A DNA stretch of 64,000 bases from an uncultured Armatimonadia bacterium (GCA_964484945.1 CAZAHB010000002.1:16-64015); one strand, 5' to 3'. Positions 2,880 through 61,642 are shown, counted from the stretch's first letter. Translations and numbers: made by a program. The notes: a model not told the origin generated them from the sequence alone.

Positions 2880-3509
2880 CTATCGCGTGTAGGGCTCGTT
2901 GCCCAGACCGAAGGCCGCCTGCGCCGACTGCCACTTGGAGTGTCCGTCCAGATAGGCGAAGTTGGCGCCACCATTGTGCGGCGCTTCATTCTGCCCATTG
3001 TTGAAGCTCAAACGATCCGCGTACTCTTCAACCGTGCCACAGTAGCTGGGATAGTAGGCATACTGGTTGTAGCTCTCGTGGAAGAGGTAGATGCTGGAAA
3101 CTTCTTCGTGCTGGGCCAGTTTATCGCCGGAGAGAGCAGAGTTGTAGCCATACGAGCGCGGTGTAATCCCACGTGGTACGATCTCAGGGTGTGGCCGTCC
3201 GGCAGAGTCGTAGATGTGCGGAGTGTCGCGCCGTGACGGGCAGGCGTACACACCAAGATTCTTCACGTATGGATAAATACATATCTCCCAGTACCAACTG
3301 TGAGAATGAAATTCGTACCGAGGCAACTTCTCGTCGTAGTCCTGGATGTACTGCTGGAAGGCGAGGTTCAGCTGCTTCGTATTCGAAAGGCACTGCGTCT
3401 GGCGGGCCTTTTCCCGCGCCCGTGCGAAAACGGGGAAGAGGATAGCCGCCAGGATTGCGATAATCGCAATCACAACCAGCAACTCAATCAGGGTGAAGCC
3501 TTTCCGCAT
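2880..3509 (-). CDS. Prepilin-type N-terminal cleavage/methylation domain protein (DUF1559, H-X9-DG pseudopilin)
   Basis: The N-terminus [37 protein letters not shown] is a class-III signal and pilin-like helix. The C-terminal [13 protein letters not shown] is the H-X9-DG motif. Confidence 0.85.
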
Positions 3510-7827: not shown

Positions 7828-9666
7828 TCACTCGATCGCCTCAGGCTCCACCATCTCGCCCTGCATCTGTGGCGGCAGGCGCCGGGCATGTGAGCCATCT
7901 ATGTCGCAGAAGTACAGCCGCGAGTCCGACGGCTCCCGCGCATGGCCATCCGCCCAGAAGCCCGCGAAATCCGGATGCGCGTTCACCGGCCGGCGGACAT
8001 ACGTGTGGTTGTACTCGCTGCCCTCCGTAAGCTGCCGCAGCATCTCCCAGCTTTCGCCCCCATCTTCCGACCGCCACAGGGCCACTTCGCCCCCGGGGTT
8101 ATACGGCTGCGGCCCCTGCTGTGTCGGGCCGATCAGCGTCCACGTCTCTCCGTCGATGTGCAGGCTCCCCGTGTCGTAGTTGCTGTCGGAGGTGCAGATC
8201 CCTTTGAGGCGCCACTCATCACCCGTCCAGTGTGCGGCGAGCCATCGGCGTGGACCGTTTTCAGGCCCGGACTCATACCCATCGCTCGTCACTACCAGCA
8301 CTACCGGCCGCCCCTCATCATCGAAGACGAGATCCTTCATGTACACGTTGCGCTCGACACTCTCAAAGTCATGCACCAGCGCCGCGTTCTGCGGATCGCT
8401 CAGCGGCGTCTGGACCTGCTCGCCGGAGGCGCTCCACCAGCTCTCTCCCCCATCGGCTGTCTCCATATAATACAAATTGGTGCGCCAGTTGAGCCCTTTC
8501 GGATCCGGGTGATAGTTGAAGGCGGTCGCCGCGCGCGTGCCGCAGGCGTTGGTCACCTGGTAATGCCCCATCTCGATGCCCGCTGTCCGCGTCGGCTCGG
8601 TCCAATCATACAGATCATCGCTGGTCTTGAAGTGCAGCCTGCGGCCGCCGGTGTAGAGAGTGTGGAAGAAGAACCAGCTTCCATCCTCCAGACGATGGAT
8701 CTGCGGGTAGGAGAAGTTGTCGATATCCACCAGGTCGAAGCGCTTCACCGAGTGCGGTTCCTCGGAGCGGTACACAAACGAGGGGCGGCTGAGGCCGTGA
8801 GAGCTGACGAAGACCCACACGTGCCCGTCCTCCGCCAGCGCGATCACAGGGTTGTCGTGCGCGTCGGAGGTACGCTTGTCACACACGATCGTGGGGCGGG
8901 GGACTTCGCCGGTCTCGTGGTCGTAATACGAGGCCATCGCGAGCAGATTCCGCCGGCCCTCGGATGTCCCGCCATACACGAAGAAGGTCCGGTTCGCCTC
9001 TTCTGAATAGACCGCGAACGGAATGTGTTTCGCGCAGTAAGTCCCCAGTCCGCCCGAGTACTTGTACACGTATTCGTCTCCGGACTTCTGGTTGTAGTAC
9101 CATATCCCGCGATAGCCGTCAGCGGTGCCGAGATCCTCAGGGACCGGGTCGATCTCAATCGGGCGGATGTCACCCGCCGCCTCGGCGTCGGGGAACACCA
9201 GATACTCATCGACCACCACGGTCCCGACGGGTGCCTTGATAGTCGTCTCGCGATCCCCGGCCGGCACCGGGACAACGTACAGCGCCCCGACATCGATGGT
9301 CTCCTTGCCCTCCCACTGCTGCAGATACCAGCGCTCGGCATTACCGACGGCCAGGTACGCTCCACCGGCCGATGCCGCGCGCACATTGAGCACCAGCAAA
9401 CCCTCGGTGGCGAAGCCGGTGCGGATCGTGACCATGTTGCGCGGGCCGCGGGGACCGTACAACCTCGTGGTGATTCCGGCTCCCAGGTCACGGGCGTCGC
9501 CGGGATCAACATCACGCAGGTCGATCATCTCATCACGGTTCTCTGCCTCCCGCTCATCGGTGGCAGGGACGATACGGAATGTGCCCTCCGGGAGAGCTGT
9601 TTCTCTGGTCGGCATGATACGCGTTCCCTCCTGGGCGAATACAGCGCAGGCGACAGTCAGAGCCAC
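7828..9666 (-). CDS. BNR/Asp-box repeat glycoside hydrolase (exo-alpha-sialidase-like)
   Basis: Multiple Asp-box motifs (TADGGESW, SEDGGESW) and a beta-propeller-like sequence. The likely start is GTG at 9666, giving the signal peptide MAISRLHCALPFLVALTVACAVFAQ, with gaggtgag as SD. The ORF track extends to 9867. Confidence 0.6.
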   Translation of the reverse strand: MALTVACAVFAQEGTRIMPTRETALPEGTFRIVPATDEREAENRDEMIDLRDVDPGDARDLGAGITTRLYGPRGPRNMVTIRTGFATEGLLVLNVRAASAGGAYLAVGNAERWYLQQWEGKETIDVGALYVVPVPAGDRETTIKAPVGTVVVDEYLVFPDAEAAGDIRPIEIDPVPEDLGTADGYRGIWYYNQKSGDEYVYKYSGGLGTYCAKHIPFAVYSEEANRTFFVYGGTSEGRRNLLAMASYYDHETGEVPRPTIVCDKRTSDAHDNPVIALAEDGHVWVFVSSHGLSRPSFVYRSEEPHSVKRFDLVDIDNFSYPQIHRLEDGSWFFFHTLYTGGRRLHFKTSDDLYDWTEPTRTAGIEMGHYQVTNACGTRAATAFNYHPDPKGLNWRTNLYYMETADGGESWWSASGEQVQTPLSDPQNAALVHDFESVERNVYMKDLVFDDEGRPVVLVVTSDGYESGPENGPRRWLAAHWTGDEWRLKGICTSDSNYDTGSLHIDGETWTLIGPTQQGPQPYNPGGEVALWRSEDGGESWEMLRQLTEGSEYNHTYVRRPVNAHPDFAGFWADGHAREPSDSRLYFCDIDGSHARRLPPQMQGEMVEPEAIE

Positions 9667-11243: not shown

Positions 11244-11521
11244 CTTCGCATGGGCCGCATCCGGTAACACGACACGCCGATCGTAAAAAACTCTGCCGTG
11301 CTCAAAGGACTTCACCGCTCTCGCGAAGAATAATATTGCTTCTACGGTACGTCTCGTGGTGTGACCGGCCCTCTCGCCCTATTGGCCGAAGGATGTCGAA
11401 CCGGTGCGAGAGATTGACACCTATCAACGAATGATCTGTATTCCCGGTCCATGACCTCCGGTCGATTGACCCGGGTCTCCACCGGCGGAACGACAATATC
11501 TCCGCAGTAAGGGAAGAGACC

Positions 11522-13156
11522 ATGCGCCTGTATTACGAGGAAATTAACCGCGCAATCGAGCAGTTGCGGGACCAGGATAACGTGGCCCGCCCGGACGGTG
11601 AGCAGCTCCGCCGCATGGCCGAGCCCTACGGTGTCCGAACCGAGTTCGGCAGCGTCAACTTCTCCAGCACCATTCGCGCGCGCAGCAAGGACCTCACCGT
11701 CATCTTCGGCAGCGACAAGGTCATGCAGCAGGACCTCAATCCGGACCAGCAACGTATCGTGCGCGAGCTGCCCGAGACCCTCAAAAAGGTCCATCGCTAC
11801 ATCCAGCACGCACCACTGGTATGCACCGCGCGCACGCTCGGCAATAACTCCGAGTTCGCGCCACACTGCACCATGTACGTCTCCACGCACAGAAAAGACT
11901 GCATCCGCCTGCCATATATGTGGTACAGGACCCTGTTCGACCCCAAGTACGCGACGGGGCCGGAGATGAACCTTGTCTATATCCCTGAATGGCAGGAGAA
12001 GGACCGCCAGGCCCTCGTCTTCCCCGAGATCGGCGTCACCTACGTGCTGGGCACCGACTACTTCGGGGAGGCCAAGAAGGGCTTCCTGCGCATGGCCATG
12101 TGGTACGCCAAGGCCCGCGGGATGCTCGGCCTGCACGCCGGAAGCAAGCTCATCACCGCGCGCACCGAATCGGGTGAACTGAAGCGTTACGGCATGCTGC
12201 TGCTGGGCCTGACCGCCACCGGCAAAACCACCCACTCGGCACATACCCACTACCTCGACAAGCCCGGTGAGGAGGTCAAGCTCGCTCAGGACGATGTGGT
12301 CTTCTGGAAAGAGGACGGCGCGGTCCTCGGCTCCGAGTCCGGCCTGTTCATCAAGACCGATTCGCTCGAGGATGGCAGCCAGGAAGTGCTGTACAACGCG
12401 GCGCCCTCGCCCCAGACCATCTTCGAGAACGTGATGGTCGATTATCTCGGCCGCGTCTACATGTCCGATGAGACGCTGACCGGTAACGGCCGCGCGGTCG
12501 TGCAACGAGAGGACCTCGGCGGTCTGGCCGCCGAAAGCATCAACCTCCCGCCCATCGATGAACTCGACAAGCTGCTGGTGTGCTTCATCACCCGTCGCAA
12601 CACCATCCTGCCGCCGCTGGCGCGGCTCAGCCCCGAACAGGGCGCTGCCGCCTTCATGCTCGGCGAGTCCGTGCACACCTCCGGCTCCAACCCGGCGCTG
12701 GCCGGACAGTCCATCCGCGTGGTCGGCACCAACCCGTTCATCGTCGGCGACGAGGCCTTCGAAGGGAATCGCTTCTACGAAATGGTCTGCAACCACCCCG
12801 AGAAGGTGCAGTGCTATCAGCTCAACACCGGCGGTGTCGGCGAGATCATCAATATCAACGAGAAGACCGGCGAGCGCGACGTGATCCAGAAAGTCGATCG
12901 CGTGGAGATCGCGGAGATGGCCGCCATCATCCGAGCCATCGTGCGCGAGAAGGTTGAGTGGGAAGCAGACGACACCTGGGGCTACGAGGTCCCGAAGGAA
13001 GTCGAGGGCGTGAATCTCGATCGCTTCGACCCCCGCAAGTTCTACGACCAGGAGCAGATCGGCGAGTTCGTCCAGAACCTGCGCCGCGAGCGTATCGAGC
13101 ACCTCGAGCAGTTCAGCGGCCTCGACGACGACATCGCCACCGCGTTCAAGCTGTGA
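11522..13156 (+). CDS. pckA: Phosphoenolpyruvate carboxykinase (ATP)
   Basis: A 544-aa protein. The kinase-1a motif GLTATGKTTHS and overall PckA(ATP) architecture are recognisable. Confidence 0.9.
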   Translation: MRLYYEEINRAIEQLRDQDNVARPDGEQLRRMAEPYGVRTEFGSVNFSSTIRARSKDLTVIFGSDKVMQQDLNPDQQRIVRELPETLKKVHRYIQHAPLVCTARTLGNNSEFAPHCTMYVSTHRKDCIRLPYMWYRTLFDPKYATGPEMNLVYIPEWQEKDRQALVFPEIGVTYVLGTDYFGEAKKGFLRMAMWYAKARGMLGLHAGSKLITARTESGELKRYGMLLLGLTATGKTTHSAHTHYLDKPGEEVKLAQDDVVFWKEDGAVLGSESGLFIKTDSLEDGSQEVLYNAAPSPQTIFENVMVDYLGRVYMSDETLTGNGRAVVQREDLGGLAAESINLPPIDELDKLLVCFITRRNTILPPLARLSPEQGAAAFMLGESVHTSGSNPALAGQSIRVVGTNPFIVGDEAFEGNRFYEMVCNHPEKVQCYQLNTGGVGEIININEKTGERDVIQKVDRVEIAEMAAIIRAIVREKVEWEADDTWGYEVPKEVEGVNLDRFDPRKFYDQEQIGEFVQNLRRERIEHLEQFSGLDDDIATAFKL

Positions 13157-19371: not shown

Positions 19372-19455
19372 CCCCTAATTCTCAGTGAAGGTATTCTTCC
19401 CGGGCCAAAGGAAAAGTGTACAAACGCTCGACACGTCTCACAGGAGGTGTGTCCA

Positions 19456-20124
19456 ATGAAGCGAGGCTTCACCCTGATTGAGCTGCTCGTGGTGATTGCG
19501 ATCATCGCCATCCTGGCGGCGATCCTCTTCCCGGTCTTCGCAAGAGCGCGCGAGAAGGCCCGTCAAAGTTCATGTCTCAGCAACCTCAAGCAAATTGGCC
19601 TGGCGGGCCAGATGTACGCGCAGGACTACGATGAGACATTCAACCCCAGCGACCAGCATTGCGACCCGCCCAACTACGTCTGGAGCCAGCTTATCTACCC
19701 CTACGTCAAGAACGATCAGATCTTCATCTGCCCCAGCTTTGGCGGAGTACACACGTCCACCTGTGGCGCTGCCCACACCAAGCCCAGTTCATACGTGCAC
19801 GGCGGCTATGCCATCAACGCCTGGCGTGAGGTCGGCCAGGGTGGCACGACCACATACGGTCCCGGCCACGGCACCGGCCAGAAGCTGGCCGACATCGAAA
19901 CTCCTGCCGAGATCGTTTACGCCTGTGATCAGAGTACGGGAAGTGATGCGAGCAACTGCTTCCGTATCTCCGTTATGCGCCAGATGGTCGGTGGAAGTCT
20001 CTACGAGAACAATCAGAAGTACGCCGTCTCGTCGCGGCACAACGACGGCTTTAACGCGACCTTCTGCGATGGCCACGGCAAGTGGCTCAAGGAGCCCCTG
20101 CCGAAGTACTTCGGCGGCTCGTAA
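19456..20124 (+). CDS. Prepilin-type N-terminal cleavage/methylation domain protein (DUF1559)
   Basis: N-terminus [37 protein letters not shown]. The C-terminal [13 protein letters not shown] is H-X9-DG. The RBS caggaggtg precedes the ATG. Confidence 0.85.
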
Positions 20125-20269: not shown

Positions 20270-21532
20270 TCACTCCGTTCCGTACGCCCGCGCGATCGCG
20301 CCCTGTGGGTCGAACATCTCCTCGATCGGCCCAAGCTGTTTCTCAAGCTCACACGGCGGCTCGTAGCGCTCGAGGTCCTCGCCATTGCACAGGCCCCGCG
20401 CAAGCTCCACGAAGTACAGGAAGTTGCGCAGCGGAATGTCCGGCGGCACACCGTGGTCACAGTGCGGGATGTAGCGCCCATGCTCCCACGCGGTGCGGTA
20501 GCGCGTGGCCACCTCCACGCGCAGGTCCGCCCGGGATTTCGCAAGCTCGCGCTTGTCCACACCCCCGTGTATGAACAGGTCCGGCCAGCGCCGCCGCATC
20601 TCTTCGGGGTCATTGCCCGCCGCGATCTCGATCGGCTGAATGCCGTCGATCGTGTCCGGATACATCACGTCCAGGATCTGGTAGTTGAAGCCATCCGAGT
20701 CCATCACGACCGCCTCGACGCCGCGCTCCTTGAAGAACTCATACAGCTTCAGGTAGCGCGGATACAAAAACTCCTCCATCAGCGGCGGACTCATCATCGA
20801 CTGGCCCTTGAAAGCCATGTCCTCGTTCAGTATCAACTCATCGACTTTGATGTGCCGCAGCGGCTCGTCGAGAAGCTCCATCAGCATCCACGCCCAGTGC
20901 TCGAACATATCATGCACCAGGTCGGGCTTGTCGTAGAACATCACAGACAGGCCCTCCATCCCCGTGTAATCGCGGATACCCCAGTAGATCCCGGCGATGC
21001 TCAGGCGAACGGGGACGTCGGAGTTATTGCACGCTTCGATGTTGTCGCCCCAGTACGAGCCACCCGGCCGGTGGCGGCCGTAGCTGTCCGGGCCCATGCT
21101 GTCGGGGGCTTCGTGAGGCTCCAGCGGGCGCGTGCGTTCCGGCGAGTGCGGATCCAGCCGCTCCTTCACGCGCTTCCAGTCGTCCCAGTCCTTCACAGCG
21201 AAGTCGAGCCATCTGCGTGTCGCGAAGCCCTCGGTCGGCTGTTCGATGGCATCCTGGCGCGTGGCGCCCCATCCATCGACCCAGGTGCGCACATTGCCTT
21301 CCTCTTTGATCAGCTTCTCTTCGAACAGCGGATGTACGCCCGTGTAGAACTTCCCCACCCCGCGGAAGCCATCGCTCCCGGTCAGCTCACCCCACCTGCG
21401 GCGCTGCTCTTCGCTGAGCCCCTGCCTGCGCCATGCGGCGAATGTTGAGGCCCGCGGGCCCCCAAAGATGTACGGCAGTCGGTCTACCTCTTCCCCGTGG
21501 ATCACGCGGCGAAAGCGCTCTCGCTGCGTCAT
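20270..21532 (-). CDS. URO-D superfamily protein, long paralogue (segmental duplicate of 342..1607)
   Basis: A 420-aa protein colinear with the 342..1607 product along its whole length ([25 protein letters not shown]...[15 protein letters not shown]...). The 3' flanks are also similar at DNA level. Confidence 0.55.
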
Positions 21533-24628: not shown

Positions 24629-25081
24629 TCAATGCACCGGTCCTTCGCCGGCGCTTTCGTCCTCGAGGTCCTCCAACTCCTCATCCACGTCGATCTCCTC
24701 TGCTTCCTCCGCGTCCTTGCGCGGGATCGCGCGGTCGAGCGCCTCCTTTGCCTTCTCCACCATCGAGCAGGCGCGATCGAACGGGCCCGATACGGTGAGC
24801 AGGCGCTCTCCGTCATCATCAACTACCAAAAACACCGGTGTCATTGTCACTCCACCACCACCACCGCCACCGGATCCTGTCTCCCGCTCTCCGCTCTCGG
24901 TATCTGAAGGGGCGCTGCCTCCTCCACCTCCAGCGCCGAATCCCATGCGCGTCACGACCGCCGGAATTATGACCTTGCCACCCACTTCCACCGGCTCACC
25001 GATCACCTCCAGTGAGTCGCTCAGCGTGGCCAGGCCGCTCACGATATCCTTCATGAATCCGCCGACATCGAAGTCTCCCAT
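24629..25081 (-). CDS. GerW/YtfJ-family sporulation-associated protein
   Basis: IGEPVEVGGKVIIPAVVTRMGFGAGGGGG...GGGGGGGVTMTPVFLVVDDDGERLL reproduces the YtfJ/GerW pattern. That pattern is the IGEPIEV.G.TIIP block, then Gly-runs, then V.P.a.lVi..dG.v. Confidence 0.6.
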   Translation of the reverse strand: MGDFDVGGFMKDIVSGLATLSDSLEVIGEPVEVGGKVIIPAVVTRMGFGAGGGGGSAPSDTESGERETGSGGGGGGGVTMTPVFLVVDDDGERLLTVSGPFDRACSMVEKAKEALDRAIPRKDAEEAEEIDVDEELEDLEDESAGEGPVH

Positions 25082-25947
25082 CAGTCTTTGTCCTCCTCGC
25101 GCGATGACTGCTCTTCTTCCATCTTCTCTATCAGGCGCCGGTCCTCATCCGAGGCACCACTCGCCTGCTCACGCGCCTTCTGCTGGCGGATGAATTCGCG
25201 GATGCGTCCATCCACCATTACCTGCACACCGGCGAGCGCGGCCCGCAACAAACCAATTCGATACAATGCCCGCACCCGTCGCGACTCCTCCCCTGCAAAC
25301 AACGTCACGTCAACGGGCCCCACCTGTCGCCGCCCGAATACTTCCTGAATGACTGAATCGACGGCCGCTCGCTCCGCCGGACTCTCGACGATGACACGTA
25401 TCTCCTCTGCCGCCCATATTAGCTCACAACTCGCCCCCAGGCCGCTCCCGATCAGGCGACAGAATGCTTCCACTGTTTCCGAATCGATCCCCCGCCAGGT
25501 TGGCGCGAGTTCCTTTGGCTCCTCCCGTCTCTCTTCAACGTCTCCTCCGGTATCCTCCACCGGCGGGATCTCTTCAATTTCGGCCTTTTCCGTCTTCTTC
25601 GGTTCTTCCGTTTCCTCTCGCTCTTGCTCCCCGCGCGCGGCCTTCTTCCTGAGCGTCCGACGAATGGGGATCCCGAGGATTCGGATAACCGCTCGAGTCG
25701 TCGTATCACCTGTAACGAATGAAACCTTCCCCCACCAGCCAATGCGCACCACCCCCCTGGGGCCCTCGCTGTCGAAGACCATCCTCAACTCACCCGGCCA
25801 GGGAAGCACAAGCAGCAGTAACATGATGCCGCTGCACAAAAGCCCCCACGGCACTCCTCCAAAGACGTAGAATCCCAGCGCGAAAGCGCCTGCCAGAAGC
25901 GCCTCGATAATCAATACGCCCACACTGACCGCACACGCCATGCGCAT
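25081..25947 (-). CDS. DUF2953-like membrane protein (YtfI-like), upstream partner of YtfJ
   Basis: Two N-terminal TM helices and a charged Glu/Lys-rich linker. The position immediately upstream and co-directional with the YtfJ homologue matches the ytfI-ytfJ pair of Bacillus. The sequence-level assignment is tentative. Confidence 0.45.
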   Translation of the reverse strand: MRMACAVSVGVLIIEALLAGAFALGFYVFGGVPWGLLCSGIMLLLLVLPWPGELRMVFDSEGPRGVVRIGWWGKVSFVTGDTTTRAVIRILGIPIRRTLRKKAARGEQEREETEEPKKTEKAEIEEIPPVEDTGGDVEERREEPKELAPTWRGIDSETVEAFCRLIGSGLGASCELIWAAEEIRVIVESPAERAAVDSVIQEVFGRRQVGPVDVTLFAGEESRRVRALYRIGLLRAALAGVQVMVDGRIREFIRQQKAREQASGASDEDRRLIEKMEEEQSSREEDKD

Positions 25948-26069
25948 GATGAGTGAATGCCTCCCGCGACGGCTCGAGGACTGGCATCAATGTTCGACTC
26001 CGCGCGCCCATATCCCTACTTTTCCGGACAAATCGTGATACCAGAAGGATTTACGCAGCAACACAGCGA

Positions 26070-26140
26070 ATTCGGGGAATGATTCCGAACTTGGGAGGAT
26101 TCTCCGGAATCGTGCGGAATCATCTCCAGACACTCGCGCG
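26070..26140. repeat. Cluster of GGAATC/GATTCC palindromic motifs upstream of the excisionase-like gene
   Basis: gggaatgattccgaac...ggattctccggaatcgtgcggaatcatc carries three or four GGAAT(C) half-sites arranged as inverted repeats. Confidence 0.3.
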
Positions 26141-26254
26141 AAACAACGCATCGAAGGTCAGTCCACATCAATGCGTTGCGATGACAGCATACGAAATCTA
26201 ACGCACGGGCCGACATACACCGCGTCGGCCTTGCGATAATTCGGTTTTCAGGGA

Positions 26255-26464
26255 GTGTATACCATGGCCGTTGAAACTGATGTGATGACACTCGACGAGG
26301 CCGCCGCGTACCTGCGCGTGCATCCTCGCACACTGCGCATGAAGGCCAGCGAAGGGAAAATCCCCGGGGCGAAAATAGGACGCGTCTGGCGCTTCCACCG
26401 ACAGCAGCTTGAGACGTGGCTGCTGCAGGGCGGTGTGCGCTCAACCGCGGATGCCGCCGATTGA
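26255..26464 (+). CDS. Excisionase-family (MerR-like) helix-turn-helix DNA-binding protein
   Basis: MTLDEAAAYLRVHPRTLRMKASEGKIPGAKIGRVWRFHRQQLETWL matches the excisionase-type HTH_17 pattern (l.v.eaA.yLgvs..T...l...G.ip..kiGr.wrf....l..wl). Confidence 0.55.
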   Translation: MYTMAVETDVMTLDEAAAYLRVHPRTLRMKASEGKIPGAKIGRVWRFHRQQLETWLLQGGVRSTADAAD

Positions 26465-26632
26465 GCGGCGCCCTGCGAGGCAGTGGCAATGCGCCTTTGT
26501 ACGAAGATCAATTAATTCGACTGATCGACCGTCCGGTGGGGAACTGCACTGAGTTGTGACGGCTTCCTCCAGCAGGAGCGCTCAGAACTGGCGCCCGACG
26601 AGGATTGGCCCAGGAGGCAGGACACTTTCGGA

Positions 26633-27697
26633 ATGCCCGACTTTCAAGCTGATGCTGACAATGATATCGACCGAGAACCTCTCGTCCAGTACGAGGATCT
26701 CGAACAGGCCACCGGCTTCACTCAGGTAAGCAACGCCGTACTGCGCTGCTACCCGGAGTTGTCCGATGGCGAGAAGATGACGTACGCGGTCCTTAAGAGC
26801 TTCGCATACGTGGGGCCGGAAACATTTGTGGGCCAGGAGACTCTGGCGCGCGCTCGCGGGATCACTGTGTCCACCATCTCCCGTCATCTGACGCGCTTGA
26901 TTGAAGTGGGCCTGGTGAAAGTCCGCCGACGCGGACAGGGTAAAACGAACATCTGGATCATCACCCGCATCCCGCGTAAGAAGCTCGAGCAATATATCAA
27001 TGACTGGCGCCCGAAACTGAGCGCGAAGCCGCAATCTGAGAATCCGCAAACCCAGACTTCGCAGAATCCGCAAGTCAGCAATTTGCAGAATCCGCAAACC
27101 AAGAACCGGCAGGATCCGCAAGCAGAAGAACAAGAACGTCTAGAAGACGAAGATAAGCCTCAGGGGCGGAGCAGCCGCCCGCTGAACGGATCGTCTTCGA
27201 TGGGGGATAACCTCTCACCTGCGGCCCTCACTGCCGAGGATACCCCTCCGGACTCTGTACTGGAGGGCGTTGTGGAAAACTGGGATGGCATAAAAGGCAA
27301 GTTATCCACATCAGGGGAAACTGTGGAAAACCTCGCTGCGATCGCCGCTGAGTGTTTCGCAGTGCCCGAGGAAGAGCCGAACATCGCCGGCTATTTACGG
27401 CAATACGATAAAGAGATTGTGAAGTCGGCGCTTGCAACCGTCGTGCAACGTCTCAACCGCGGCCAATCCATTCGGAATCCCGTCGCTTACTTCTATACCG
27501 TTGTGCGGGTCGCGCAGGCCGAGAACGATGCCGCTCAGGCGGACGAGAAGCGCGACGAGAATGAAAAGCAGGTCATCGCCTGCAACTGGGCCCGCAGCCT
27601 CCTGCGCGAGTGGCCCGCAGATCAGGTGCGAGCCATTCTGATGGACACGTACCATTCGGACGAGTTCGTAGATACAGTGATGGATCAACTGGACTGA
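26633..27697 (+). CDS. Replication-initiator/replisome-organizer-like protein with N-terminal winged HTH and internal NPQ repeat linker
   Basis: LSDGEKMTYAVLKSFAYVGPETFVGQETLARARGITVSTISRHLTRLIEVGLVKVRRRGQGKTNIW is the phage/plasmid Rep-type HTH. The C-terminal NPVAYFYTVV resembles the DnaD-like C-terminus. The middle region is encoded by an about 24-nt tandem DNA repeat. Confidence 0.45.
   Translation: MPDFQADADNDIDREPLVQYEDLEQATGFTQVSNAVLRCYPELSDGEKMTYAVLKSFAYVGPETFVGQETLARARGITVSTISRHLTRLIEVGLVKVRRRGQGKTNIWIITRIPRKKLEQYINDWRPKLSAKPQSENPQTQTSQNPQVSNLQNPQTKNRQDPQAEEQERLEDEDKPQGRSSRPLNGSSSMGDNLSPAALTAEDTPPDSVLEGVVENWDGIKGKLSTSGETVENLAAIAAECFAVPEEEPNIAGYLRQYDKEIVKSALATVVQRLNRGQSIRNPVAYFYTVVRVAQAENDAAQADEKRDENEKQVIACNWARSLLREWPADQVRAILMDTYHSDEFVDTVMDQLD
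27040..27125 (+). repeat. About 4 tandem copies of GCAGAATCCGCAA (period 22-26 nt) inside the Rep-like gene
   Basis: gagaatccgcaaacccagacttcgcagaatccgcaagtcagcaatttgcagaatccgcaaaccaagaaccggcaggatccgcaagcag. It encodes ENPQTQTSQNPQVSNLQNPQTKNRQDPQ. Confidence 0.7.
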
Positions 27698-27722
27698 GAC
27701 ACGTGGAGGAGCTGTTCAGGGG

Positions 27723-28136
27723 ATGACTATCGGAAAACGTTTGCGCAGGGCACGTCGTGAGACGGGCCTCACAGACGATCAGCTTGCCGAGGAACTGGGG
27801 GTGGAAGTCAGCACACTGCGCGCCTGGGAGCTTGAAGTCGAAACACCATCCGACGAGCAGCTTCAGCGCCTCGCTGAACTGGTCAACATGGATGGCGAGA
27901 CTCTCTCCCACCTTGCTGCCAGCCCCGCCCCCCAGGGCATCTGCAGTGCCGTGGATCTCGTCCCCGATCGCTCACAGGCGGAGGCTCTTGAACAGGTTGG
28001 CCTCCCTCCCGAGCTGTGGGACGATCCGGATCGCTGGGTCGCGTTTCTGCGCCTCGCAGCCGCGGCGGCCGATCTCTCCCCGGATGAGATCTCGCGCCTT
28101 GCCCGCGAGGCCGAGACGTGTGTCGTGGGGGACTAA
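27723..28136 (+). CDS. XRE-family helix-turn-helix transcriptional regulator
   Basis: MTIGKRLRRARRETGLTDDQLAEELGVEVSTLRAWE is a Cro/C1 HTH. Confidence 0.55.
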   Translation: MTIGKRLRRARRETGLTDDQLAEELGVEVSTLRAWELEVETPSDEQLQRLAELVNMDGETLSHLAASPAPQGICSAVDLVPDRSQAEALEQVGLPPELWDDPDRWVAFLRLAAAAADLSPDEISRLAREAETCVVGD

Positions 28137-28143
28137 TGTAGAA

Positions 28144-28232
28144 CTATACAGCCTCAAACCTATACAGCTAGAAGGGCCACAGCCCGTGAAGGTAAAGGTT
28201 TAGCCGCGAAACTTATACAGGGCTATACACAG
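28144..28232 (+). repeat. Four direct repeats of (A)AC(C/T)TATACAG (iteron-like), with a fifth copy at 28877
   Basis: ctatacag at 28144 and 28160, cttatacag at 28212, ctatacacag at 28223, and aagctatacag at 28877. The first four are just downstream of the XRE and Rep-like genes. The fifth lies on the far side of the rhodanese gene. Confidence 0.6.
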
Positions 28233-28393
28233 GTAATGGTCTGCTCAAGACCCGGGAGTAACAACACAGGCCGCATTGAAACAGTGGTGATTCAGAACCA
28301 ATGATTGTTTCAGACACGAAACCGCGAACAACCCGTCCGAAGAACGTCTGTCCAAACCCGCCGCTGCGACATGCTCGACTGATCCTCAGAACC

Positions 28394-28795: not shown

Positions 28796-28888
28796 AAGTA
28801 TGCAAGCGAAGGCTACACAAACCTGCACAGTAAGTGGCTGGGTAAGCCGCAGATCGTGGAGGTGTGCCGCGTAAAGCTATACAGAAAG

Positions 28889-35810: not shown

Positions 35811-37241
35811 CTACCCCAACTCCTCGCGCGCCCGGTCCACGATCACGCGCATCTGTGCAAGTTGCTCCTCGCGGCCTTCGGGCTTCTCGTACGCATCCAG
35901 CAGCGCGTCCACGCGGTCCGCGGTCTCTGCGAGGAGCGCCTCCTCGCGATCGAAGCCCGCGTAGCCCGAGCGGTCGATCAGGTCCGGCAGCCACACGCTG
36001 TCGCGGAAGCGCTTCGCGGTGTGCATCGTCTCCAGGTGGCTCTCCCCTATTCCCAACCCCACCTGCAGGATCTCATCCAGCGCAAGGTTCTCCGGACTCG
36101 GGTCGAATGTGCGCGTCAGGTGCGCGCTGCCCGAGGCGAACTCGCGGTCCAGCAGAAGCTGCACCGCCGAGAGCTTCTTGCCCTCATCGACCATCCCGCC
36201 CCCCGATGACAGCGACTGTCCGGTGAAGGCCGTCACCACCGCCGACTTGTACGCCTTCTCCAGCGCCGCGTACAGGCCCGGGACCCTGGCGTCACAGTAC
36301 TCGCCCGAGCCCATCGGGATGGTCATCCCGCACCAGCGGCGGATGAACTCCACGCACGCGAAGCCGTAGTAGAGCGCATCCCAGGCGGCGTAACTGACCG
36401 CCCCGGTGCCCATGTCCACCGTGCCCGGCCACATACTGCCCCGCAGGGGGACCTCCGGGTTCACGCCGCGAGCGGCCATCCACGTGGCCACGAATTCTGC
36501 GGTCGAGACCGCGACGAAGCCCTCGGCCGTCACCGGGGTCGAGACACCCGCGACCGGCATCGCCGTCAGCCCGCAGGGCTCACCGGCCTTCGCGCGGAGG
36601 ACGTACTTCCCGGCGAGGTCGCGGTCCATGCGCAGCGGATGGGCGAAGCACACCGCGCCCCACGCGAACCAGTCCTCCAGCCCCAGCACCTCCCCCATCT
36701 CGCGCAGCCACGGGATCTGATCGGCATGCCACGCGAAGGGACCGTGCGGCCTGTGGGCGTACTCCGCCAGCAAGAGGCCCGCCTCCAGCGGCTCGAGCAT
36801 CGGCGGCACATCCGTCAGCGACAGCGCATGCCCGACACCGCGCTCGCGGTGCAGGGCGTCGCCGAACTTGATGAGGGTGGTCAGGTCGTCGCGGTTGGCC
36901 TGGCGCTCCTCGCCCGTGCGGTGGTCCTCGTAAAGCTGCGCGACCTGCGTGCCGACCACCGGCAGCGAGGGAGCGCCGAGAGTCATTCGGTCCTCCGCGG
37001 CACCTGCGGGGCGGGCTTGCGGCCCGCCATGCTCTTCGCGAACGCCTTCCATGAACTCCGCGGTCAACTCGCGCGGGAAGTAGACGCGCTCGTCGGGGTA
37101 GCTGACCTCTGCGCCCATCGCCTCCATCCCCCGCATGAGTTCCTCGTTCTGACACAGCGCCCCGACCTCTTCGAGAATGGTCAGGACCGCGTCGGCCAGT
37201 GGCTCGATGTGCTCGTCCCTGATGATCGCGCGCTGGAACAT
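35811..37241 (-). CDS. MttB-superfamily (trimethylamine methyltransferase family, non-pyrrolysine) methyltransferase
   Basis: The N-terminus IRDEHIEPLADAVLTILEEVGALCQNEELMRGMEAMGAEVSYPDERVYFPRELTAEFM matches the MttB-family N-terminal block. That block is lseeqlerIh.asl.iLeevGv.v.....lell...Ga.vd..rvrfp..lve. The protein is about 476 aa, with no in-frame TAG. The start is set at MFQRA (37241). Confidence 0.65.
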   Translation of the reverse strand: MFQRAIIRDEHIEPLADAVLTILEEVGALCQNEELMRGMEAMGAEVSYPDERVYFPRELTAEFMEGVREEHGGPQARPAGAAEDRMTLGAPSLPVVGTQVAQLYEDHRTGEERQANRDDLTTLIKFGDALHRERGVGHALSLTDVPPMLEPLEAGLLLAEYAHRPHGPFAWHADQIPWLREMGEVLGLEDWFAWGAVCFAHPLRMDRDLAGKYVLRAKAGEPCGLTAMPVAGVSTPVTAEGFVAVSTAEFVATWMAARGVNPEVPLRGSMWPGTVDMGTGAVSYAAWDALYYGFACVEFIRRWCGMTIPMGSGEYCDARVPGLYAALEKAYKSAVVTAFTGQSLSSGGGMVDEGKKLSAVQLLLDREFASGSAHLTRTFDPSPENLALDEILQVGLGIGESHLETMHTAKRFRDSVWLPDLIDRSGYAGFDREEALLAETADRVDALLDAYEKPEGREEQLAQMRVIVDRAREELG

Positions 37242-37337
37242 GGCAGATGCCTCCCGTCTGGAGTCGTGGTTGGAATGAGGTTCACCCTTCGGGAGGAAAT
37301 CCCCTTTTATCCTGGCGCCCGCTACACATTGCAAGGA

Positions 37338-44910: not shown

Positions 44911-45348
44911 TCAGTCGCGCCGCAGGTCGTCCGCCGCCGCCTGGAGGTCATCGAGCCCATGGCGGATGGCGAAGTCCGCAATCGCCGACTTACTTGTCTT
45001 CACATCGTATTCCGTCAGGAGGCGGAACTTGACCTCCTCGAGCATGTGCGCAACCGGCTCAGTCAGGTAGAGGGTCACCGCTTCCTTGGGTCCCTCCTGC
45101 GCGGGCGGCCGCCCGATGCGCGAGTTGTCTGAGTTCGCGCCATCGGAGGAAGTTTCCTTCTCCCGCGTGGCCTGCTGCGGCGGAGGATCGTTACGCCGAG
45201 GTTGCTCCATCGACCTGGCGAGCACCTCGCCATCAGTGCCGCGCTCAGGCTGCTTTTCGGGTTCTTCGTCCGGCTCATCTTCAGGCTGCCCATCATCCGA
45301 GGTGACATCGAAGAATACGTCCTCGGGGATCTCCGGTCGCTTACGCAC
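44911..45348 (-). CDS. Small acidic protein with C-terminal ribbon-helix-helix-like segment (ParG-like partner of ParA?)
   Basis: The N-terminal 90 residues are Glu/Asp/Pro-rich. The C-terminal EAVTLYLTEPVAHMLEEVKFRL...SKSAIADFAIRHGL fits a beta-strand, helix, helix RHH. Its start overlaps the parA stop by 8 nt. Confidence 0.4.
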   Translation of the reverse strand: MRKRPEIPEDVFFDVTSDDGQPEDEPDEEPEKQPERGTDGEVLARSMEQPRRNDPPPQQATREKETSSDGANSDNSRIGRPPAQEGPKEAVTLYLTEPVAHMLEEVKFRLLTEYDVKTSKSAIADFAIRHGLDDLQAAADDLRRD

Positions 45349-46093
45349 GGTCGATCACCTCCTGAGCAAGTTCGCGGTAGGCTTCGGCGCCGCGGCTGTC
45401 GGGCCGAAGATGCACCAGCGGTGTGCTGGCGACGGTCGCGTAATCGAAGGCGACAGTTCGCGGAATTACCGTGTCGAACACCTGGTCGCCGAAATGCTCC
45501 TTCAGACGGTTGGATACCTCTTCGGCGTGAACCGTTCGCGCATCGTACATGGTTAGTAAAAGTCCCAGGATCTCGAGGTCAGAGTTGGCGCGGTTGCGGA
45601 CGCCCTCGACGGTGCGCAGAAGCTGCTGGAGCCCTTTCATCGCGAGGAACGCGCACTGGACCGGGATCAGCAGTTCATCCGCGGCGGTGAGAGCGTTGAT
45701 CGTAAGAAAGCCCAGGCTCGGCGGGGTGTCGATGAGCACGATTGTGCCCTCGGCAACGCCATCGAGCTTGTCCGCAAGGCGCGACTGACGTCGCTCGGCC
45801 CCGGCGAGTTTCGCCTCCGCAGCGGCGAGGGCGTACTCGGCAGGGGCTACGAGCAGGTTCTCGAAGGGTGTGGGCTGGACGATCTCGCGCAGGTCCACGT
45901 CAGGTGAGAGCAGAAGATCGTGGGTGCTCAGCTCAACCTCGTCGGCGCCGGAGATGCCGGTGAGATTGGCCTGGGGGTCGAGGTCGATGAGGATGACCCT
46001 CTCCCCCATTTCGGCGAGGGCGGCGCCGAGGTTGAGGACACTGGCTGTCTTACCAACCCCGCCTTTCTGGTTGGCAACGGCGATGGCGCGCAT
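45341..46093 (-). CDS. parA: ParA/Soj-family partition ATPase
   Basis: Deviant Walker A AVANQKGGVGKTAS. ParA blocks are LIDLDPQANLT and IVLIDTPPSLGFLTINAL. The start is set at MRAIAV (46093). Confidence 0.85.
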   Translation of the reverse strand: MRAIAVANQKGGVGKTASVLNLGAALAEMGERVILIDLDPQANLTGISGADEVELSTHDLLLSPDVDLREIVQPTPFENLLVAPAEYALAAAEAKLAGAERRQSRLADKLDGVAEGTIVLIDTPPSLGFLTINALTAADELLIPVQCAFLAMKGLQQLLRTVEGVRNRANSDLEILGLLLTMYDARTVHAEEVSNRLKEHFGDQVFDTVIPRTVAFDYATVASTPLVHLRPDSRGAEAYRELAQEVIDRA

Positions 46094-46159
46094 GGCATAT
46101 CCTCCCTTGATGATGCCGGCGGCAGCCGGCGTGCTGCGATCATTGCCACAGCCTGACGA

Positions 46160-46560
46160 TCGACGCCATCTTAGCAGCATAGCGTCATGCCGTCAAACAG
46201 CTTCCCTGTTATAGTTGTACAGCGTTATGCTGTCAGGCCATGAACGAAGTAAGGGGTTAAGACATTAAAACAGGGATCGGATGGGCCTGCGCATTATGCT
46301 GTTATAACATGGAAAGACGGCGTATAGCAGCAGAAAGACGCGTCATGGCATATGGCGCGATTTAGAGGAATAATGTTTTAACAGCATAAGTGCACGATGG
46401 CGAATGGTCGGGCTGAGAACCGCACCTGCTGGCAAGAGTAGAAAACGAGAAAACAGCAAAACGGTAGAACCCGATAACAGTACAACAGCAGAAGCTTAAA
46501 AGGCAAAAACGAGGGCTCGTTAGAGAGGGATAAGCCGGGCGGTGGCGGAGTAGAAGGGAT
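46160..46560. repeat. AT-rich region with iterated ACAGCAT/ATGCTGT-containing repeats (candidate centromere-like/iteron site) upstream of parA
   Basis: GC content is markedly lower than the surroundings. The motifs are ttagcagcatagcgtcatgcc, cgttatgctgtcagg, cattatgctgttataacatgg, tagcagcagaaagacgcgtcatggc and ttttaacagcataagtg. Confidence 0.5.
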
Positions 46561-56085: not shown

Positions 56086-56691
56086 ATGAGGCGACGAGGG
56101 TTTACCCTAATCGAATTGCTGGTTGTGATTGCGATTATCGCGATCCTGGCCGCAATCCTGTTCCCGGTTTTCGCCCGGGCGCGGGAGAAGGCCCGACAAT
56201 CGAGTTGTTCGAGTAACGTCAAGCAGATTTGTCTGGCGGTGCACATGTACGTCCAGGACTACGATGAGAGGATGCCCATGGCGGTTGCCGGTGTTCCGCC
56301 GGCGATCTGGACATTCGAGGAGCTGCTCAATCCGTACATCAAGAACGAGCAGCTCTGGGACTGCCCCAGCAAGCCGCGGTCGGTAGACCTGTCGCAGCTT
56401 GGAAAGCCTAATGTGAGCTACATGGTCGATGTCGGTACACCATTCCCGTCAGGATCGAGCACAGGTCGCCTGTTCGGCGCACCGGCGGCAGGGACGTCCT
56501 CATGCAGCCTGGCCCAGATCGAGCAGCCGGCCACTACTCCGATCATGTGTGATGCAGAGGGCTCTGTAGATGCCTCCTTCACAATCGACATCAGCGAGGC
56601 TCCGCGGCATAATGACGGCTGCAACTACGGCTTTGCGGACGGTCACGTAAAGTGGGATCGACCCGAGAAGATTGATATCAGACTGGAGTAG
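56086..56691 (+). CDS. Prepilin-type N-terminal cleavage/methylation domain protein (DUF1559)
   Basis: N-terminus [38 protein letters not shown]. The C-terminal [13 protein letters not shown] is H-X9-DG. Confidence 0.85.
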
Positions 56692-60997: not shown

Positions 60998-61642
60998 ATG
61001 AGCACACGTCGAGGATTTACCCTTATCGAACTGCTGGTTGTCATCGCGATCATCGCGATCCTGGCAGCAATTCTGTTCCCTGTGTTCGCGCGTGCGCGCG
61101 AGAAGGCGCGGCAGACGTCCTGTCTTTCTAATGTAAAGCAGATCGGGACCGCGCTGATGATGTACGTTCAGGACTATGATGAGATGATGCCGCAGTATCT
61201 CATCCCCACCGGTCGGAGCCTCCAGCCGGACCTTCCCGACATTGGGTACGATCATACTGTCTGGCAGGACCGCCTCTATCCGTACGTGAAGAACTGGCAG
61301 GTGTGGGTCTGCCCCAGCGGTGGTGGCTACAGCGGCACTGCACGCGAATATCAGGGCTCGTACGCCGGCAACTACCGGTACGTCTTCTCTCACTGGGACG
61401 ACTGGACCTACAGTCTCGCGGACTTCACCCATCCAGCGGAAACTTTTACGGTCCTCGAGGGCACCAGTTACATCACCCGCTACGACCCCGGCATCCCATC
61501 GTCCAGTGGTGGCTACTGGGGCCAGCTTGACTCGCGGCACAATGACCAGAACAACGTTCTTTTCCTGGACGGCCACGCCAAGACCCAGCACGACCGGGTC
61601 GTCTCGCCCCAGTCCCCCAACTGGACTGGCGATTTCGAATGA
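60998..61642 (+). CDS. Prepilin-type N-terminal cleavage/methylation domain protein (DUF1559)
   Basis: N-terminus [39 protein letters not shown]. The C-terminal [13 protein letters not shown] is H-X9-DG. Confidence 0.85.

Follow-up and report, generated by a model that had tools for sequence, protein, structure and literature searches.

A stretch of 64,000 nucleotides from an uncultured Armatimonadia bacterium (GCA_964484945.1, CAZAHB010000002.1:16-64015; hereafter the window) contains a low-GC block, at 26040-28240, in which three genes follow one another on the plus strand and code for an excisionase-family HTH_17 protein, a replication initiator-type protein (Rep) and an XRE-family regulator. 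Our analysis indicates that this block is probably an active origin of replication with its own initiator, composed of iterons and DnaA boxes that are embedded in the initiator gene. The best reading of the module is that of a plasmid- or phage-type HTH_17-Rep-XRE operon, vertically inherited and fixed in a large replicon that bears hisD and pckA, this replicon being, in Zipacnadia-type Armatimonadota, the main chromosome or else an old chromid (Zipacnadia corresponds to the GTDB class UBA5377; PMC10290634). It is a known kind of replication module, found in an unexpected genomic and taxonomic setting.

The central gene of the module codes for a protein of 354 amino acids (aa), in which three parts could be discerned by alignment and from the AlphaFold model: a winged-helix N-domain (residues ~16-128), a disordered linker (residues 132-228, with predicted local distance difference test values below 50) and a C-domain (residues 229-354) that is confidently modelled as a seven-helix bundle. 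The N-domain is nearly invariant across the class and under very strong purifying selection; the amino-acid sequence of the linker is variable, and its synonymous sites are well kept. The best Foldseek matches in the PDB were the N-domains of staphylococcal plasmid RepA proteins (4PQL, 4PT7 and 5KBJ), and all PHROG matches were to replication families ('replication initiation protein', 'O-like' and 'DnaD-like helicase loader', E 3e-12 to 1e-8; 'O-like' families, E 1e-10 to 2e-6), with the matches extending into the linker. An earlier note on this DNA, made from the sequence alone, had described the 354-aa protein as a replication initiator with a DnaD-like C-terminus. The first part of this description is supported by the PHROG and Foldseek matches and the second is not, because the C-domain gave no DnaD or DnaB match when tested for a DnaB_2/DDBH2 domain. 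Pfam Phage_rep_O matched Rep only at E 0.034 and 15.1 bits, below its cut-off of 28.7, and when PDB sequences were searched with profiles, both the full protein and the C-domain gave chance-level matches only.

The DNA that codes for the linker resembles an origin of replication (Table 1). The motif of the four iterons, which are translated as QNPQ peptide repeats, is found nowhere else in the window, and the orthologues carry 3-4 iteron units that keep the exact 24-bp phase in every species. The A-rich, purine-rich tract that abuts the last iteron contains the codons GCA GAA GAA, invariant in 13 of 13 sequences, and ranks among the within-gene lowest-GC 40-mers in most orthologues; by analogy with the lambda origin, it may serve as the unwinding element. 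About 150 bp further on lies the DnaA-box cluster, whose plus-strand box (27302-27310) is the sole perfect TTATCCACA in the 64 kb. Across 13 loci, with ~230 kb in total, perfect DnaA boxes were confined to the rep gene, and the spacing of the first inverted pair of boxes was always 31 bp.

Conservation of this region at the DNA level was analyzed in a codon alignment of 13 orthologues. At codons 131-170, third-position identity was 0.82-0.92 with an amino-acid conservation of 0.61-0.74, and in the invariant N-domain third-position identity was 0.52-0.74; the means were 0.90 in the linker origin DNA versus 0.65 in the N-domain (Mann-Whitney p 6e-10). Synonymous sites in the linker are therefore more conserved than those of the N-domain, which points to selection on the DNA itself. 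The same trend was observed in individual codons: the T that precedes GTGGAAAAC is invariant even though the codons that it ends differ (Val, Ile, Gly, Asp or Pro), the F/L-S-T peptide is always encoded by TT(T/A) TCC ACA, and the rare codons CAA, GAA and ACT are fixed in the iteron/linker region, where Gln is always CAA and Glu always GAA, whereas CAG and GAG are used in the rest of the gene. An overlapping gene was considered as the cause of this conservation and rejected, since no alternative reading frame is open across the orthologues. The region is thus a case of dual coding: its iterons and DnaA boxes are also translated, into QNPQ, VEN and F/L-S-T peptides, and it keeps its synonymous sites better than the invariant domain of the protein does; at present, annotation pipelines label such proteins ArsR/MarR regulators.

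The module coincides with a switch in GC skew. When the plus-strand GC skew of each gene was regressed on gene strand and side, the best split was at 26-28 kb, whether all positions or third codon positions were used. The optimal change-point, exactly after the gene at 25081-25947, removed 55% of the residual variance, and its strength was matched in 0 of 2000 permutations of the gene order. Because the shift is seen for genes of both strands (Table 1), it is independent of the direction of transcription and has the polarity of an origin, and it holds for more than 20 kb on each side. Within the 64 kb, the DnaA-box cluster lies at this switch. In the related loci, the left flank was more negative than the right one in 10 of 10 cases, and in 6 of them the module was the point of the best split, also in L014 and L017 with their rearranged flanks; as these loci are related and short, such recurrence counts as support and not as independent proof.

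Homologues of Rep were found in 62 clusters, all of them full length, 47-70% identical and from Armatimonadota metagenome-assembled genomes (MAGs), and the GTDB species representatives ('Candidatus Zipacnadia', 'Armatimonadota' and 'WS1') have one rep copy per genome. A core of four genes (the YtfJ gene and a 288-aa gene, with HTH_17 and Rep divergent from them) occupies the same place in 12 of 12 related loci, from at least 11 species, and it is kept also where the outer flanks are rearranged (L014, L015 and L017); to its right, XRE, rhodanese, Clp_N and hisD genes usually follow. Identity to the relatives is 52-68% for Rep, 55-67% for a neighbouring 1038-aa gene (big1038), 77-91% for HisD, and 67-88% for the HTH_17 protein (11 orthologous loci). 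In addition, a GC dip of 4-6 points below the respective flanks is present in all 12 orthologous loci.

Beyond these orthologues, a profile search of 1.8 billion representatives returned ~1100 Rep relatives. All the nearer ones have peptide repeats in the linker, and intragenic DNA iterons were present in the three distant relatives examined at the DNA level (L032, L034 and L035). The contexts of the distant relatives are of mobile-element or plasmid type: in L032, ParA, a 117-aa protein and Rep follow one another, and the rep gene carries the VEN-coded DnaA box; in L034, ParA and a 126-aa protein are divergent from a MerR-like gene and Rep; and in L035/L036, HTH_17 stands directly before rep, beside a resolvase and a DnaB-type helicase. 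Distant relatives of the N-domain were also found on four IMG/VR viral contigs.

Table 1. Position and main properties of the sequence features of the window discussed in the text.
Feature	Coordinates	Strand	Details
Divergent intergenic control region, 288-aa gene versus HTH_17 gene	25948-26263		Orthologous intergenic alignment; the gene-level GC-skew change-point falls here
Operator-like repeats	26076-26121	+	Palindrome GGAATGATTCC at 26076-26086; conserved block GGGAGGATTCTCCGGAATCGTGCGGAATC at 26093-26121
Excisionase-family HTH_17 gene, 66 aa	26264-26464	+	Pfam HTH_17 E 4e-15; TIGR01764 'excise' E 9e-15; first gene of the module
Rep initiator gene, 354 aa	26633-27697	+	Pfam HTH_36 E 1.7e-8
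Four 24-bp iterons	27031-27122	+	Cores CAG[A/G]AT[C/T]CGCAA at 27038, 27062, 27086 and 27110; coding QNPQ peptide repeats
A-rich, purine-rich tract	27122-27160	+	GCAGAAGAACAAGAACGTCTAGAAGACGAAGATAAG; directly after the last iteron; candidate unwinding element
DnaA-box cluster	27271-27330		TTTTCCACA 27271-27279 (-), TTATCCACA 27302-27310 (+), TTTTCCACA 27322-27330 (-); three boxes within 60 bp
XRE-family regulator gene, 137 aa	27723-28136	+	HTH_19 E 8e-11; HTH_3 E 9e-10; third gene of the module
AT-rich spacer	28137-28300	+	YTATACAS repeats at 28144, 28160, 28213 and 28223; CTATACAG direct repeats of the earlier note
Possible partition locus	44911-46493	-	ParA-type ATPase 45341-46180; overlapping 145-aa partner 44911-45348; repeats 46171-46493
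Third-position plus-strand skew, left of the module			Plus-strand genes -0.20; minus-strand genes -0.14
Third-position plus-strand skew, right of the module			Plus-strand genes +0.05; minus-strand genes +0.17

From this layout we infer how the origin might work. The N-domains of Rep would bind the four phased iterons within their own gene, the box cluster would be bound by the host DnaA, and both proteins would jointly open the A-rich DNA between or beside their sites; the C-domain of Rep would then recruit the host helicase or primase machinery, and the bidirectional forks so established would generate the GC-skew switch over time. The level of the initiator could be set by the Rep, HTH_17 or XRE protein acting on the iteron-like operator upstream of the operon. 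Since neither dnaA nor dnaN is nearby, the link to the host DnaA is drawn from the boxes alone.

The nature of the replicon was considered in the light of a possible partition locus (Table 1), which lies ~17 kb to the right of the module. Its ParA-type ATPase matched AAA_31 (E 2.5e-49), with NCBIfam partition-type matches below their cut-offs, and at least six TTATGCTGT/ACAGCATAA repeats are present in the AT-rich region upstream of parA. The ATPase and its 145-aa partner are 48% and 41% identical, respectively, to the ParA and 117-aa pair directly upstream of the related rep in L032, and throughout the class the pair is kept in a constant arrangement, DUF3604 <> ParA-partner-Wza. In the window, the next gene on the strand of the locus is a Wza-like Poly_export/SLBB gene. 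The par locus may thus belong to the rep module or to the same replicon; rep and par were on different contigs in both MAGs where both were found, and in one species pckA is beside par on a contig that has no rep. Apart from the module and this locus, the window consists of ordinary cellular genes (pckA, hisD, kinases and carbohydrate-active enzymes).

Plasmid-type rep and par genes, the core genes hisD and pckA, and a GC content like that of the rest of the window are found together here, as in chromids, and we lean towards a chromid in view of the par locus and of the lack of informational genes in the 64 kb. If this were so, it would be the first evidence of multipartite genomes in Armatimonadota, and the origin would anchor both MAG assembly and peak-to-trough estimates of growth rate. 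Alternatively, the main chromosome itself would be replicated from this plasmid- or phage-derived origin, which would replace a dnaA-linked oriC or work alongside it and would be accompanied by a plasmid-type ParA locus. We advance this natural 'replicon takeover' as a tentative possibility; it would provide a natural bacterial case in which the replication of a chromosome has been taken over by the initiator of a mobile element, an idea that so far rests mainly on archaeal origins and on 'integrative suppression' in the laboratory.

Several observations weigh against an active origin. The most AT-rich DNA is outside the rep gene, downstream of XRE, and neither a clear AT-rich unwinding element nor a DnaA-trio array was seen (trios being judged by eye). 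In the C-domain of Rep, no fold that would recruit a helicase or primase could be recognised. The 64-kb window has no dnaA, dnaN or canonical parB, and no real instance was obtained when signature motifs of dnaA, parB and dnaB were sought in all 610 kb of related loci. The skew is drawn from one 64-kb window and from 10-kb flanks of relatives that share ancestry, and the conserved left-hand genes (those for YtfJ and the 288-aa protein) are strongly C-skewed themselves. Finally, all the genomes are fragmented MAGs in which the replicon is undefined, and tblastn searches of plasmid and phage collections returned no close relative.

The lack of a clear unwinding element and of a recognisable replication fold, the strong skew of the neighbouring conserved genes, and the ArsR/MarR labels that NCBI and JGI attach to members of the family all favour the rival explanation that survives best. 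It states that the module is a domesticated, non-firing fossil of a mobile-element replication module, in which Rep and DnaA bound to the intragenic sites would only regulate transcription (for instance through an autoregulatory roadblock, or through a site that titrates DnaA or responds to it), and that the skew has a different cause, for example an old inversion boundary or a gene-specific composition. We consider this explanation unlikely. The skew shift is observed on both gene strands and for more than 20 kb on each side, and it recurs in loci with rearranged flanks; furthermore, regulation alone fails to explain why the 24-bp phasing of the iterons and the 31-bp spacing of the boxes are kept class-wide. 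Four phased iterons together with an A-rich tract and DnaA boxes are also the usual arrangement in theta origins that fire (PMC5703833).

It is very improbable that the block is an ordinary cluster of three transcription factors (an excisionase- or BldC-like HTH protein, an ArsR/MarR-like winged-helix protein and an XRE protein) with repeats that are just low-complexity coding sequence. Small HTH_17 proteins can indeed be plain regulators, and a weak BldC match was obtained, but the linker surpasses the invariant DNA-binding domain in the conservation of synonymous sites, across 230 kb the DnaA boxes are confined to the rep gene, the PHROG matches are all to replication initiation and reach into the linker, and relatives adjoin parA and DnaB-type helicase genes. 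Least credible of all is a recently integrated plasmid- or phage-like element that has since decayed, or a helper-dependent satellite, as the earlier note had proposed from the GC content below that of the flanks and a gene content typical of mobile elements, to which the existence of mobile-element relatives can be added: the module and its GC dip are at the same site in all the related loci, the identity of Rep is in line with that of big1038, no direct repeats bracket the block, neither a tRNA nor an integrase is present, and no reading frame is broken, purifying selection on the N-domain being very strong.

Hence, as regards the earlier note, most of what it observed holds, and its interpretation was right on ancestry and wrong on status. 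A plasmid- or phage-like origin of the module agrees with the mobile relatives, in which HTH_17-Rep stands by a resolvase and a DnaB-type helicase (L035/L036) or Rep follows ParA and a small protein (L032). A remnant, an insertion or a satellite does not agree with the synteny, which the note had named as the comparison that could refute it: related genomes carry the same genes in the same place, with the same dip, in 12 of 12 cases. The closest of its proposals was a cryptic replicon module captured by the chromosome; a cryptic state, though, fits poorly with origin DNA under purifying selection and with the skew switch. Its observation that no integrase, recombinase or relaxase is present between the flanking genes was reproduced at the level of open reading frames (ORFs), and the search it had advised for att-type direct repeats bracketing the block gave none. 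The block therefore does not have the properties of a prophage, an integrative and conjugative element or a satellite, given also that its presence does not vary among the related loci. Scans of the whole window for tRNA and Rfam families gave no match, so that there is no tRNA-type integration site and no known RNA.

The closest parallels to the proposed origin are theta plasmids with an intragenic origin. The Rep protein of pSK41 (RepA_N family) binds four Rep boxes in the middle of the gene that encodes it, where the central domain is a dispensable linker, and the Rep of pPR9 is a chimera with an HTH_36 (pfam13730) N-domain and the same layout as pSK41 (PMC5703833). The protein described here shares with them a winged-helix N-domain, repeats in the centre of the rep gene, a linker for which the origin DNA codes, and a C-domain separate from both, which in their case is needed for the recruitment of host factors. 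It differs in that three DnaA boxes are inside the coding sequence, in that its C-domain gave no DnaD match and has no recognised fold, and in that pSK41 and pPR9 belong to small Firmicute plasmids, whereas here the module keeps one place, at a GC-skew switch, in a large replicon that bears housekeeping genes, throughout a class of Armatimonadota. A modular swap of an N-domain plus its origin, like that of pPR9 relative to pSK41, was found in protein P0070 of L032 (10001-10915), which has a true Phage_rep_O N-domain and different iterons; its C-domain, however, is homologous to that of Rep in the window (E 2e-31), and its gene has the same DnaA box coding for VEN.

In phage lambda, the origin is inside gene O, four iterons are followed by an A-rich tract in the DNA of the interdomain linker, the N-domain of O binds the iterons and its C-domain recruits the helicase loader. 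The likeness to our module extends to the iterons and the A-rich tract in the linker-coding part of the initiator gene and to the O-like PHROG matches. The differences are that Phage_rep_O is below its cut-off, no gene for a P-like loader follows, the module is not in a prophage, and its DnaA boxes have no counterpart in ori-lambda. Iterons for a dedicated initiator (whose binding would here have to be by Rep), DnaA boxes and an A/T-rich tract are combined in pSC101, F, P1, RK2 and the oriCII/RctB system of Vibrio chromosome 2. With such iteron plasmids and chromids the module also shares iteron-like operator repeats upstream of rep (with a putative role in autoregulation), a plasmid-type ParA locus and, as in chromids, core genes; in contrast to them, where the origin is beside a gene for a Rep_3/RepE-like initiator or RctB, the origin is here within the initiator gene. 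Finally, a canonical oriC has its DnaA boxes clustered at the GC-skew minimum, usually between genes and beside dnaA-dnaN. Our module likewise combines clustered consensus boxes with a skew switch of origin polarity, except that here the cluster is within the coding sequence of a second, plasmid-type initiator and next to iterons, without dnaA/dnaN within 64 kb and with no DnaA-trio array seen. An origin of the Caulobacter type, adjacent to hemE, was also considered and rejected, because the URO-D paralogues of the window do not adjoin the module and are accompanied by genes for MTTB-type methyltransferases. Small plasmids and phages are known to have origins within an initiator gene; to our knowledge, none that is fixed class-wide in a large housekeeping replicon has been described for this phylum, and our search for literature on replication in Zipacnadia or Armatimonadota found nothing.

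With regard to base composition, the GC content at 26040-28240 is 0.583 versus a window mean of 0.635 (standard deviation 0.025, in 2.2-kb windows), and it is the lowest of any such stretch in the 64 kb, lower values being found only in overlapping windows. The drop that the earlier note had called clear is thus real, if modest (about two standard deviations) and wider than it stated. It spans ~25.3 to 29 kb and for this reason covers neighbours that had been taken as chromosomal flanks; GC at third codon positions is also low in the 288-aa gene and in the rhodanese gene. The three plus-strand genes that the note had listed were recovered with Pfam and TIGR matches, as were its rhodanese and Clp_N genes on the right flank. 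On the left, the minus strand carries the YtfJ gene and, adjoining it, that for the 288-aa protein, which the note had called YtfI-like and which gave no family match. This Glu-rich, membrane-like protein and YtfJ (24629-25947) are always paired and always divergent from the module in all the orthologous loci, despite rearranged surroundings, and both genes have an unusually strong C-skew.

The HTH_17 gene likely starts at the ATG at 26264. The XRE gene was present in most orthologous loci (L002, L003, L007, L009, L011 and L014) and absent in L004/L013 and L012, and since it is missing in some lineages, it is an accessory and not a core part of the module. Where it is absent, its place is taken by unrelated small ORFs or by a short spacer (L004/L013, 11252-11771; L012, 11057-11345).

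In the intergenic region upstream of the operon, the GGAATC motifs reported in the earlier note are real: GGAATC/GATTCC occurs in three copies, alongside the palindrome GGAATGATTCC, at 26076-26121. The motif is not enriched window-wide (21 found versus 41.5 expected), and what counts is the local conserved block. An upstream block, AGGAGGATTCTnCGGAATCGTGCGGAATC, is kept across species in the orthologous intergenic regions, the block at 26093-26121 being present in at least 10 orthologous loci, and the upstream repeats share the core RGRATYC with the intragenic iterons. Because iteron plasmids use the same arrangement for autorepression, the upstream block may be a site of Rep autoregulation. 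In L014 (~8800-9600, a 'WS1' MAG), this intergenic region has received an insertion of ~570 bp that is rich in short repeats of the GCCGTT(G) type, and the conserved operator block remains downstream of it. A scan for promoters and terminators did not exceed chance level.

Downstream of the module, the direct repeats that the earlier note had described are also real, with YTATACAS found six times in the window versus 1.14 expected and four of the copies within 28144-28230; CTATACAG does not bracket the block, so that the repeats are not of att type. Within the module, the 40-mers poorest in GC are in the spacer that contains these repeats; 7 orthologous loci have their minimum at the same position, and CTATAC/GTATAG motifs recur in the spacer of those 7 loci. 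An operator, a promoter or an unwinding element are candidate roles for this spacer. One extra CTATACAG lies between the rhodanese and Clp_N genes (28877-28884). In addition, motifs that contain TATACA form intergenic inverted pairs ~30 bp apart to the right of the module in L002 (~12922-12954), L004 (~12434-12464) and L009 (~11518-11550 and 12043-12060), and their recurrence suggests a common operator of some regulator.

Some further features of the window were noted. Two URO-D paralogues and a gene of the MTTB family (trimethylamine methyltransferase-like) were located at 342-1607, 20270-21532 and 35811-37334, a combination that typifies corrinoid methyltransferase systems rather than haem synthesis; several relatives keep the synteny of the URO-D gene that lies near the module. 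An upstream ORF of 122 aa (2098-2466), likely coding for the antitoxin, overlaps a MazF/PemK toxin gene (2463-2813, E 1e-25), and the same PemK pair is beside pckA in L037. Four pseudopilin-like paralogues (N_methyl plus DUF1559) are scattered over the window, at 2880-3509, 19447-20124, 56086-56691 and 60998-61642.

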